Shown here: positions 2,871-20,000 of the stretch, in pieces
How positions within the stretch are numbered: position 1 is the first letter of the stretch
Layout of the letters: each line of letters starts with the position of its first letter
NCBI RefSeq assembly: GCF_004010195.1
Contig: NC_057718.1
Span: 10,190,988 to 10,210,987, forward strand
Source: Chiloscyllium plagiosum
Taxonomy: Eukaryota
Direction of reading: 5' to 3'
Length of the DNA: 20,000 bases
Position numbers and translations under genes: made by a program
Notes under the pieces: generated by a model
Told to the model about the DNA's origin: nothing
Database searches by the model: none
Seen by the model: the letters and a program-made list of their open reading frames with translations, nothing else

Positions 2871-3129
2871 TTATTGAAGTAAGTTCACACCGAGAGTTGG
2901 GCACTAATTGTGTCAAAGTTAGCTGTTAGTTCTTTGTCGCAGAAATAATTGGACCAATCAGACACAATAACCTTTACTTAGCAACAGAATTAGTTATGGA
3001 TCGTGTCAGTGAGGTACAGAGTACATCTGCTCTCCAGTACTGCTGCTTCAGATTGCTTTCCAGTCTTAGGGACTAATGTTTTGTTGTGGATAATAATTTA
3101 CACCAGCTTAAGATATGCCTCATTATTGT

Positions 3130-3567: not shown

Positions 3568-3912
3568 ACAGAATGTTACAGCACAGAAGGCCATTTAACC
3601 CACTGTGTCTGTACCAGCTCCTGAAAGAGCTACCCAGCCAGTACCACTCTCCAGTTCTATCGCTGTACCCATCTAAATTCATCCTTTTCAAATATACATC
3701 CAGCTGTCCTTTGAAACCTCTTTTGGTATTTGCCACCGCCTGTCTCCCAGGAAGTATATCCCAAACCCTAATGAATCTGAGTAAAGACGTTTCTCTTCAT
3801 CTCATTCTAGCTCCCTTGCTGACATTCTTGAAATTGTGACTCCTGGTGAGCAAATAAGGTGCCCAGAACTCAACACAACACTCCAAACGTGGTCTGACCA
3901 ATGACTTGTACA
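3568..3912 (-). mobile_element. Degraded CR1 LINE 3' fragment
   Basis: Reverse strand of 3850-3912 reads LYKSLVRPRLECCVEFWAPY (CR1 ORF2 C-terminal motif); CR1 tail at 3570-3620. Confidence 0.7.
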
Positions 3913-4929: not shown

Positions 4930-5730
4930 GTAATGGAAGGTGACAGCAACAGAGCTATCAAGCAGCAAAACAATAACCTGCTCAATGATGCTCAGATTGG
5001 GTTCCTCCAGGGCCACTCAGCTCCTGATTTCATTACAGCCTGGCCCAAACATGGACAAAAAGAGGTGAACTCCATTGTTTGCCATCAACGAGATGTATAC
5101 TTGCCAACACTCCTTCAACAGCACCTTCAAAACCCATGACCACTACCATCTACAAAGACAAGGGCAGCAAATACATGGGAACACCTTCACCTGCAAGCTC
5201 ACTAACTTGGAAATATACCATTGTTCCTGCAGTGTGCCTGGGTCAAAATCCTGAAACTGCCTCCAAAACAGCACTGTGAAGTTACCTGTGTCACATGTGT
5301 GACACCACTTACAACACTCTCTTAGCCACTGATGCATAATGGCAGTAGTCAAGAGGATGGTGATGGAAAAGCACAGCAGGTCAGGCAGCATCCGAGGAGC
5401 AGGAGCATAAACGTTTCAGGCAGTTGTGTATATTATCCACAAGATGCATTGCAGTAACTCAATAAAGGTTCACCAAGACTTGCACCCTCTGGGGCATCTA
5501 GTTCAAGGGCAGGAGATACATGGGAGCACTACCATTTACAAACCAATAAATCATCCTGACTTAGAGATACATTATCATTCCTTCAGTGTTATTGGGTCAA
5601 AATCTTGGAACTCCCTCCCTAACAACATTGTGCTGGGTACCTATGTCATCTGGACTACAGTGATTCATGGACATTTAGGGATGGACAGTAAATGCTGGTC
5701 TTTCCACTGAGGCTCATATCCTACAAACTA
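4930..5730 (+). mobile_element. Fragments of a CR1/L2-group LINE (RT remnant plus two 3' segments)
   Basis: NNLLNDAQIGFLQGHSAPDFITAW is an RT QxGFR-like motif; 3' segments ggtcaaaatc(c/t)tg(a/g)aact...aacagca at 5240-5275 and 5595-5630. Confidence 0.65.
5348..5422 (-). mobile_element. Single arm of the fold-back/hammerhead family
   Basis: ggaaaagcacagcaggtcaggcagcatccgaggagcaggagcataaacgtttcaggca matches arms at 1053-1110 and 13224-13260; minus strand retains GCCT-GAAA-CGTT. Confidence 0.75.
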
Positions 5731-13005: not shown

Positions 13006-13221
13006 TCGAAACATGGGAAAAGAAACCAAAAAGACTCGTGTCTGGACAGTACCGTTTCCCAACCACCGGACCTCCGAAGGAGCTTTACTGACCACTTTGA
13101 AACTGCAGTGCCTGTGTAGTTCAGGAAAAACAGCAGTTATTACCTGCACAGGAAGCAGTGCAACTAAGGATCAGTAGAGGGTGAGAGGATTGTCCTAGGG
13201 TGGTAGGCTGAGAAAAAGTGG

Positions 13222-13414
13222 TGAGCGCAGCAGGTCAGGCAGTATCCAAGGAGCAGGAGAACCGACAGACATAAGCCCTTCTTCAGGAATCCTGAAGAAG
13301 GGCTTATGCCTGAAACGTTGATTCTCCTGCTCCTTGGATGCTGCCTGACCTGCTGCGCTTTTCCAGCAACACATTTTTCAGCTCTGGATCTCCAGCATCC
13401 TCACTTTCTCCTCC
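13222..13414. mobile_element. Palindromic fold-back element with hammerhead core and 14-bp TSD
   Basis: Arms 13224-13288 and 13290-13359 around a single central base; TSD ctgagaaaaagtgg at 13208-13221 and 13415-13428. Confidence 0.88.
13286..13325 (+). ncRNA. Minimal type I hammerhead ribozyme-like motif
   Basis: GGAAUC / CUGAAGA-A / GGGC-UUAU-GCCU / GAAA-CG-UU / GAUUCU: helix I 6 bp, helix II 4 bp, palindromic ACGU in place of helix III; predicted cleavage after 13319. Confidence 0.65.
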
Positions 13415-13459
13415 CTGAGAAAAAGTGGGTCGCCATTCTCCACAGCTGAGAAAAAATGA

Positions 13460-13800
13460 GCAGTGATCTTACTGAAATGTACAAGCAAAGAGCTATTCCC
13501 TAAGAGGGCAGGGGTTCAAAACTAGGGAGGCTATTTTTAAGGTGAGAAGAGGAAGATTTGAAAAAGACATGAGAGGCAACTTTTCCAGACAGAGTAATTT
13601 GTGTGTGGAATGAACTGCCAGAGGAAATGGTGGATGCAGCTACAGTTACAACGTTTAAAAGACATTTGGATAAGTACGTGAATAGGAAAGCTTTGGAGGG
13701 ATATGGGCCAAGCACTGGCAGCTGCAACTATTTAATTTGGGAACATGGTCGGCATGGACTGGTTGGACCGAAGGGTCTGTTTCCATGCTGTATGACTCTA
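13460..13800 (+). mobile_element. CR1 LINE 3' fragment
   Basis: WNELPEEMVDAATVTTFKRHLDKY and tail ggaccgaagggtctgtttccatgctgtatgactcta. Confidence 0.85.
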
Positions 13801-19345: not shown

Positions 19346-20000
19346 AGGTTTGTAGCTCAGGTTGAGGTTTAGGGTGTAGGTTTGCTCGCTGAGCTGTAGG
19401 TTTGATATCCAGACATTTCATTACCTGGCTCGGTAACATCATCAGTGACGACCTCCAAGTGAAGTGAAGCTGTTGTCTCCTGCTTTCTACTCATATGTTT
19501 GTCCTGGATAGAGTTCCTGGGGTTTGTGGTAATGTAATTTCCTGTTCGTTTTCTGAGAGGTTGATAGATGGTATCGAGATCTATGTGTTTGTTTATGGCA
19601 TTGTGGTTGGAGTGCCAGGCCTCGGAGTGCCAGGCCTCTAGGAATTCTCTGGCATGTCTTTGCTTACCCTGTCCCAGGATAGATGTGTAGTCCCAGTCGA
19701 ACTGGTGGTTTTTTTCATCCGTGTGTAGGGCTACGAGGGAGAGAGGGTCGTGTCTTTTTGTGGCTAGCTGGTGTTCGTGTATCCTGGTGGCTAACTTTCT
19801 TCCTGTTTGTCCTACGTAGTGTTTGTGGCAGTCCTTGCATGGAATTTTGTAGATGACGTTGGTTTTGTCCATGGGATATACTGGGTCTTTAAGTTTGTTA
19901 GTTTTTGTTTGAGACGGTTGGTGGGTTTGTGTGCTACTAGGATTCCGAGGGGGCTTAGTAGTCTGGCTGTCATTTCTGAAACTTCTTTGATATATGGTAA
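19345..20000 (-). mobile_element. Penelope-like retroelement 3' part: linker, GIY-YIG endonuclease and 3' terminal region
   Basis: LPYIKEVSEMTARLLSPLGILVAHKP linker; NVIYKIPCKDCHKHYVGQTGRKLATRIHEH...REFLEAWH...AIN endonuclease; frameshift near 19890. Confidence 0.92.
19408..19449 (-). ncRNA. Minimal hammerhead ribozyme-like motif in the Penelope 3' region
   Basis: Minus strand UCA / CUGAUGA-U / GUUACC-GAGCCA-GGUAAU / GAAA-UG-UC / UGG. Confidence 0.62.

Follow-up and report, generated by a model that had tools for sequence, protein, structure and literature searches.

The window analysed here is a stretch of 20,000 nucleotides from Chiloscyllium plagiosum (contig NC_057718.1), and the feature under study is a 193-bp insert within it, which lies between two perfect copies of the word CTGAGAAAAAGTGG (14/14 identical), folds back on itself and carries the core boxes of a minimal hammerhead ribozyme on its right arm. 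An initial annotation, made from the letters alone, had described the insert with its perfect 14-bp duplication and a fold-back around position 13289. Both were borne out, the latter by an inverted repeat joining 13224-13266 with 13317-13359 (93% complementary) and by a second, nested pair joining 13266-13288 with 13290-13312 (96%). We read the insert as an old, dead product of a Penelope-like element (PLE), built from two copies of the terminal ~70-125 nt of the PLE RNA that lie head to head in opposite orientation, with a probability of about 0.6 that the arms were made at insertion. Its parts are listed in Table 1.

The insert, its family and its hammerhead motif

The insert belongs to a family for which its own 3.56-Gb assembly yielded 2,756 first-look candidates; among the 40 that were scored, full-length copies were 84-92% identical, and the insert itself is ~11% diverged from its relatives. 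The family alignment comprises 27 of 30 loci, L018, L025 and L030 having been dropped as duplicates of L006, L022 and L017, respectively. These 27 copies were picked by their likeness to the insert and a further 20 by their junction, and both samples are small. The right end (...ctcactttctcct) is common to all 27 aligned copies, while 23 of them reach ~24 nt further to the left than the insert and finish there in the reverse complement of ...cacattttcagc. In the insert, L002, L007 and L011, the outer left arm is cut at four different points, each with its own flanking duplication. An exact flanking repeat of at least 8 bp is present in 41 of the 46 unmasked copies and measures 11-18 bp in 37 of the 46. 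The variable duplications, the fixed 3' end and the one-sided truncation together argue for target-primed reverse transcription and against a cut-and-paste transposon.

The insert is not a complete unit: its left arm is ~24 nt short at the outer end and lacks another 5 nt (the complement of GAAAC), and its tail is 7 nt shorter than that of its relatives in the alignment of the 27 family copies. Due to the loss of the GAAAC complement, the minus strand has no hammerhead at the insert.

We looked for an empty-site paralogue across the insertion point and found none, the right flank from 13484 onwards being a separate abundant repeat; the duplication call therefore rests on the family-wide evidence. 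A third copy of the duplicated word, CTGAGAAAAAATGA, identical at 12 of 14 positions, is located at 13446-13459, 31 nt downstream. The A-rich target already contained an imperfect direct repeat. The repeat in the right flank (13484-13800) starts ~55 nt downstream of the insert, is unrelated to it and is very abundant, with 8,906 first-look candidates and scored copies 81-85% identical.

The hammerhead boxes that had been assigned to the right arm were confirmed to the base (13292-13325), including the palindromic ACGU at 13315-13318 in the place of helix III. CUGAAGA, GAAA and an NUH triplet, the elements of the minimal motif, are all present; the triplet is GUU (13317-13319) in the insert and GUC in the family, and the predicted cut falls between 13319 and 13320. 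The unpaired base before helix II, at 13299, is an A here and in the main families, and a U in the GUUACC type. In isolation, the 40-mer from 13286 to 13325 has a minimum-energy fold (-11.0 kcal/mol) that consists of exactly helix I (6 bp) and helix II (4 bp). This agrees with the earlier proposal of a helix I formed by GGAAUC and GAUUCU and partly derived from the palindrome junction; its 6 bp include one G-U pair and are available only thanks to that junction. In the parental PLE context, the same helix I pairing gives -13.3 kcal/mol, compared with a minimum of -24.1 kcal/mol. The palindrome junction supplies the right arm with a 6-bp helix I that is not found in the parental context.

PLE-type minimal hammerheads are described as having the core boxes, a G10.1-C11.1 pair, no helix III and a palindromic 15.2-16.2 stretch (PMC4209133). 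The assignment to this type, made in the initial annotation, stood: the family consensus has every one of these traits, and the insert departs from it only by CpG-to-TpG decay. Its 10.1-11.1 pair (13300/13311) is a G-U wobble, which is G-C in the family majority. The majority letter in RNA reads is likewise C instead of T, both at 13311 (365/630 and 677/818 reads) and at 13319 (517/717 and 790/969). The consensus GCCC-GAAA-CGUC that had been expected is thus seen in the family alignment and in the majority letters of the reads. On the evidence of the sequence, the right-arm hammerhead has intact core boxes and two CpG-to-TpG changes, GCCU and GUU representing decayed forms of the family's GCCC and GUC, and its helix III would need a partner RNA that pairs through ACGU. 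Of the poly(A) single-cell RNA reads of the same species label, 2,614 matched at a likeness of at least 85%, 98% of them continuing into unlike sequence, and the depth was 700-1,380 over 13295-13369.

The motif is heavily over-represented. In exact-word counts over the 3.56-Gb genome, the pattern CTGANGA-N10-24-CGAAACGTC had 115,634 matches (57,933 + 57,701), whereas its reversed control had 95 (51 + 44). The pattern is thus ~1,200 times commoner than the control, from which we conclude that the motif is not due to chance. Covariation of helix II from lineage to lineage is seen in three types: the GGGC/GCCC of the main families, the GUUACC/GGUGAC of a 6-bp helix, and GAGC/GCUC. The double change to GAGC/GCUC was counted at 3,121 sites and the single change at 3,869, these being counts of sequences and not of independent events. 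We also observed that the helix II loop of the family consensus contains an ATG (13306-13308), which opens a frame of ~26 codons ending within the tail; in an anole PLE, the start of the open reading frame (ORF) has been reported at stem II (excerpt of PMC11167929).

The predicted fold of the whole insert as RNA (193 nt) is a single long hairpin (-124.7 kcal/mol, z = -14.7), an energy that none of 200 shuffled sequences reached (mean -55.7 kcal/mol). A folding switch between this hairpin and the ribozyme, as suggested in the initial annotation, found no support, given that the local hammerhead amounts to -11 kcal/mol. The insert is most likely inactive today and without function, because it is ~11% diverged, has lost one of its hammerheads, and the other would need a partner RNA and is buried when both arms are transcribed.

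Table 1. Parts of the insert and of its right-arm hammerhead motif, in window coordinates.
Feature	Position	Strand	Basis or remark
Left target-site duplication, CTGAGAAAAAGTGG	13208-13221		14/14 identical to 13415-13428; adjoins the family boundaries in relatives
Left arm, inverted PLE 3' end in antisense; outer end ~24 nt short, complement of GAAAC missing	13222-13288	+	Alignment (row L001_L)
GGAAUC, candidate 5' strand of helix I, composed of left-arm end, centre base and right-arm start	13286-13291	+	Sequence; fold of the 40-mer
Palindrome centre, head-to-head junction of type CAGGA-A-TCCTG	13289		Inverted repeats
Right arm, PLE 3' end in sense, from hammerhead edge to 'short' terminus ...cacattttcagc	13290-13384	+	88-95% identity to 24 of 29 PLE loci
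CUGAAGA box (C3-A9, 13292-13298) and extra unpaired A (13299)	13292-13299	+	Sequence
Helix II GGGC (13300-13303), loop UUAU, GCCU (13308-13311)	13300-13311	+	Sequence
GAAA (13312-13315), palindromic ACGU (13315-13318) in place of helix III, U17 (13319)	13312-13319	+	Sequence
GAUUCU, 3' strand of helix I	13320-13325	+	Sequence; fold of the 40-mer
PLE 'tail', optional extension of ~33 nt with a 7-nt deletion in the insert	13385-13414	+	Alignments of PLE loci and foldbacks
Right target-site duplication	13415-13428		14/14 identical to 13208-13221

Penelope-like elements as the source of the arms

A genome search with the Pfam GIY-YIG domain, in which the best 150 of 14,403 candidates were scored, produced one decayed match (L031, 32 bits). 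By DNA similarity, L031 led to a young PLE family with 3,385 candidates, of which the 40 that were scored were 94-96% alike. A translated locus of this family matched RVT_1 with 36.2 bits (cut-off 29.6; L059:361-1143), so that in L059 the reverse transcriptase (RT) lies upstream of the endonuclease (EN) query (1501-1797), and GIY-YIG scored 22.5 bits at L034 (cut-off 22.6). The search for an autonomous partner that had been recommended thus ended in an RT/GIY-YIG PLE family, and the right arm of the insert recurs in 24 of its 29 loci, in the orientation of the ORF and 50-680 bp downstream of the EN query. At the ends of these 24 loci, we found the short terminus in 17, a terminus with the tail in 6 and a partial end in one. 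An alignment of 17 PLE loci has 12 that end at ...cacattttcagc(tc) and 5 that continue for ~33 nt.

Since a PLE family with RT and GIY-YIG ends in the same ~95-129 nt, the insert must have been made by PLE machinery, and its PLE origin is nearly certain. It therefore consists of two inverted PLE 3' ends, the right one running with its tail to the long terminus and the left one, in complete relatives, to the short terminus. Of the earlier proposal that the insert is a non-autonomous ribozyme unit moved by a PLE, the part concerning the machinery survives; the palindrome, however, corresponds to the known inverted arrangement of PLE pseudo-long terminal repeats (pLTRs) and not to a special design of a mini-element. 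A 'tail' is known from PLEs as an optional extension of 30-40 bp that is often present at one end only (excerpt of PMC8557442). In an anole PLE it has been traced to two adjacent start sites of reverse transcription, and the protein of that element cuts and extends both DNA strands (excerpt of PMC11167929).

The right-arm module also occurs in contigs of two other organisms (a guessed RNA origin), with C again as the majority letter at both 13311 and 13319; the PLE lineage, or at least the module, thus extends beyond a single species label. In 10 of the 17 aligned PLE loci (L032-L058), there are internal deletions with differing end points, which lie between the end of the EN domain and a point 30-125 nt upstream of the hammerhead. 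The deletions ~300 nt upstream of the hammerhead may represent template jumps during copying.

Origin of the foldback

Head-to-head junctions at the 5' edge of the hammerhead were found at 5,330 loci, whereas the position one word further upstream had 19, the predicted cut site had 122 and an inner control word had 313; 19,194 further copies run on upstream as ordinary PLE sequence. The junction sequences vary widely, with dozens of variants, but their position does not. The type of the insert, CAGGA-A-TCCTG, accounts for 13 of the first 50 loci listed.

For a sample selected by junction word alone, we took the first 20 loci listed for the hammerhead-edge junction. The tail was on one arm only in 19 of these 20 foldbacks, as it was in 27 of 27 insert-like copies. 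The second arms of the 20 had the short terminus in 17 cases, and the remaining three were one truncated arm, one masked arm and one copy with both tails. A second PLE subfamily, distinguished by a CTGT loop, a helix I strand GAAUCU and other changes downstream, has the same structure, with its diagnostic changes mirrored in both arms. Over 18 complete copies, the arms diverged by 2.9% within a copy and by 7.8-8.8% between copies, and in 12 of the 18 the nearest arm was the copy's own partner. The contrast was weaker among 23 insert-like copies (5.0% within, 6.0-7.0% between).

As the arms within a copy are far closer to each other than to those of other copies, and as all PLE subfamilies show this architecture, with numerous variants of the junction, most foldbacks look as if they were made anew, without a master foldback. 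The insertion event itself is thus the probable origin of most twin inserts, with a single template whose end, or a block to the enzyme, lies immediately 5' of the hammerhead. The stretch copied in the two arms includes the minimal hammerhead, the region at which PLE reverse transcription begins and, in the right arm only, the optional tail. On this model, the target would have been cut in a staggered fashion by the GIY-YIG endonuclease, after which a short RNA would have been reverse-transcribed up to its 5' end, or to a hard stop, immediately upstream of CUGAAGA. For the second arm, either the other DNA end would have served as primer or the enzyme would have switched template to the freshly made cDNA, and either route would result in arms that are born alike. 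An origin at insertion fits the self-priming and the inverted-pLTR structures described for rotifer Penelope (excerpt of PMC3846280), as well as PLE insertions in which an inverted, 5'-truncated copy lies beside the element with a tail at one end (excerpts of PMC8557442 and PMC3846280).

A number of observations weigh against this reading, in part or as a whole. Several of the PLE loci are partly masked, and the homology was read from partial rather than full-length PLEs. That the template RNA had its 5' end at the hammerhead edge is something we infer. A template produced by ribozyme cleavage finds no support, as the 122 junctions at the cut site do not exceed the 313 at the inner control. 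The motif itself escaped Rfam, whose hammerhead models gave no match in 13100-13500 either at the gathering score or at E-values of up to 10. These models include helix III, which is absent from the minimal motif. RNA-read ends did not pile up at 13319/13320 among the 2,614 matching reads, for which the poly(A) single-cell library is poorly suited. An intermolecular double hammerhead, paired through ACGU, is feasible in the energy model, yet it is not the predicted optimum: the pairing gives -18.9 kcal/mol for the arm of the insert (dimer minimum -24.6) and -24.7 kcal/mol for a consensus-like arm (dimer minimum -28.4). Minimal hammerheads of PLEs cleave weakly in vitro (PMC4209133), and that of the anole PLE is assisted by the protein and dispensable for insertion in vitro (excerpt of PMC11167929).

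To the same side belong two changes that are almost exclusive to left arms and that speak for the most serious competing explanation, in which the foldback is non-autonomous but propagates itself: a master copy would be transcribed as a whole, the PLE RT would copy the hairpin RNA starting from the tail, and the insert would be a 5'-truncated daughter. In sense view, GTCTG stands in place of GCCCG in 9/27 left arms and 0/27 right arms, and GGTTC in place of GATTC in 11/27 left arms and 1/27 right arms. The insert has both markers, and they are common to loci with different duplications. Further, the outer truncation of the insert's left arm would be expected from a whole-foldback RNA that was truncated at its 5' end; outer truncation with an intact junction occurs in 4/27 and 1/19 copies, and many copies share the same junction. 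Against this, a single master does not account for arms that differ by 2.9% within and ~8% between copies, for the dozens of junction variants, or for private and subfamily variants mirrored in both arms (L014, L015, L016, L022, L023, L027, L028 and the CTGT subfamily). Both markers are absent from all 20 junction-sampled copies, which limits the process to at most one sub-lineage. As a general explanation we therefore regard self-propagation as possible, though rather improbable; in one sub-lineage, complete foldbacks may nevertheless have been copied as units, and this would account for the outer truncation of the insert as well. The left-arm-only changes correspond to A-C mismatches in the plus-strand hairpin and to G-U wobbles in the minus-strand hairpin.

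Formation at insertion can be extended, tentatively, to the view that the short twin inserts are abortive 'strong-stop' products that show how PLEs copy themselves, an idea we consider doubtful. In PLE loci (e.g. L038:1965-2003), the 1-35 nt upstream of CCTGAAGAAG contain a TATA-like TTTTATCTTA located ~23-32 nt before TCATTCC. A short RNA might start at this initiator-like TCATTCC, ~30 nt after the TATA-like TTTTATC in the terminal repeat, and would include the RT entry site 95-130 nt downstream, the hammerhead thus being placed at the extreme 5' end of the template. Starting from both cut ends, or with a jump onto the fresh cDNA, the RT would then copy up to the 5' end of the RNA, and the cDNAs would be joined head to head. 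The common junction types start at the A of TCATTCC or at one of the next two bases, and the types CAGGAAT-[G/C]-ATTCCTG, CAGGAATTCCTG and CAGGA-N-TCCTG are compatible with starts at +1 to +3. If this were true, strong-stop junctions would map the transcription starts of PLEs at single-base resolution.

A very unlikely alternative is that the locus acts through its hairpin RNA, with read-through transcripts of the ~65-bp stem feeding small-RNA silencing of PLEs or serving as a microRNA-like precursor, and the hammerhead being irrelevant. The hairpin of -124.7 kcal/mol (z = -14.7) is compatible with such a role, family sequence appears on both strands in the RNA reads, and small-RNA profiles have been shown over inverted Penelope structures in rotifer (excerpt of PMC3846280). 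Rfam microRNA models matched the hairpin weakly, with a best score of 44.1 bits; these matches (mir-3158 and others) are far under the gathering score of 97, however, and are to be expected of any long hairpin. In addition, the CpG decay of the insert resembles that of neutral DNA, and read depth over the left arm is 2-9, against 700-1,380 over the right arm, although this comparison is biased by palindromic mapping. The reading as a miniature inverted-repeat transposable element (MITE), to which the long inverted repeats and the flanking duplication might point, with a transposase as the origin of both and an incidental hammerhead-like string, was rejected as extremely improbable, since the duplications are not of fixed length (8-18 bp), the ends are asymmetric (tail and truncations on one side) and the arm belongs to an RT/GIY-YIG element, of which it forms the 3' end. 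A retrozyme was likewise rejected, as the copies at the locus are inverted and form no tandem array.

Comparison with known systems and related copies in the window

The hammerhead described here shares with those of PLEs (PMC4209133) its type I layout, the CUGANGA and GAAA boxes, the G10.1-C11.1 pair of the family consensus, the absence of helix III and the palindromic 15.2-16.2 stretch (here ACGU), which implies action as a dimer. It also shares their place in the PLE terminal repeat and their massive copy number, mostly as single truncated motifs, and pairs of hammerheads on opposite strands have been noted in Schistosoma. The differences are a helix II of 4 bp instead of the 7-8 bp typical of Schistosoma, a poor helix I in the parental PLE (2 bp, a mismatch and 1 bp, where ~4-6 bp would be expected) and a copy number more than 10 times the largest counts quoted (about 4,000 and 9,000).

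With canonical PLE insertions, as far as these are covered by the excerpts of PMC8557442 and PMC3846280, the insert has in common the head-to-head inverted terminal repeats, a tail on one arm (~33 nt here, 30-40 bp there), variable target-site duplications and heavy 5' truncation. Its two alternative termini match the two start sites of reverse transcription (excerpt of PMC11167929). In contrast to canonical insertions, there is no ORF or body between the arms, both of which are cut to the last ~95-129 nt, and there is one preferred junction, at the 5' edge of the hammerhead, where 5,330 loci compare with 19-313 at the control positions. Animal non-LTR retrozymes, where LTR denotes a long terminal repeat, are also short non-coding hammerhead sequences that derive from PLE terminal repeats and depend on PLE proteins. 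They form tandem direct repeats, however, thought to cycle through circular RNA, whereas the insert is a dispersed inverted pair with a target-site duplication (excerpts of PMC7229834 and bioRxiv 10.64898/2026.07.22.740005). The Sm-alpha and Sj-alpha elements of schistosomes, which resemble short interspersed nuclear elements (SINEs), are short dispersed retroposons with a type I hammerhead as well; they differ by their promoter head and by a hammerhead of canonical form, in which helix III and loop contacts are present, and no foldback is described for them (excerpt of PMC6765202).

The ribozyme motif, its place in the PLE terminal repeat, the inverted copies, the one-sided tail and non-autonomous sequences derived from PLEs are thus already in print. 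In the literature we searched, which excluded subscription journals and Repbase, we found no account of short twin PLE ends that lack an ORF and meet head to head at the hammerhead edge, or of comparable counts. The insert is ordinary junk DNA, the link between the ribozyme and PLEs has been in print since 2014, and no view is overturned. The genome, with more than 115,000 pattern-intact minimal hammerheads and ~5,300 head-to-head junctions, nonetheless constitutes an unusually large natural library in which covariation and the rules of PLE insertion could be studied. The likeness of the two arms at birth and the sharply preferred junction offer testable hints on the poorly understood integration of PLEs, namely on two-sided priming, template jumps and the start of the template RNA. 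To annotate such units as MITEs, microRNA hairpins or unknown SINEs would be to mislabel them.

The window contains further sequences related to the insert. A second family member, at 370-533, has its own 12-bp duplication GTGACTTTCCCA (370-381 and 522-533). Its left arm is complete at the outer end and stops at ...caggagaatc, the complement of the 5' end of the predicted cleavage product, while its right arm resumes at tgcctgacc, so that both hammerheads are missing. An older PLE 3' end of another lineage, ~80% identical, occupies 1055-1105 and 1211-1342, with an inverted arm fragment ~105 bp upstream. Its segment at 1211-1342 reads CUGAUGA-A-GAGC-UUAU-GCUC, with a compensatory A-U pair in helix II, and has GAAACG decayed to AAAATG. 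A short fragment of arm sequence at 5357-5422 is ~85% identical over 65 nt and matches in both orientations. Finally, 19372-19744 has 69% DNA similarity over 379 nt to the coding part of the PLE locus L038 and probably represents a piece of a different PLE family, overlapped on the minus strand by an open frame of 209 amino acids.

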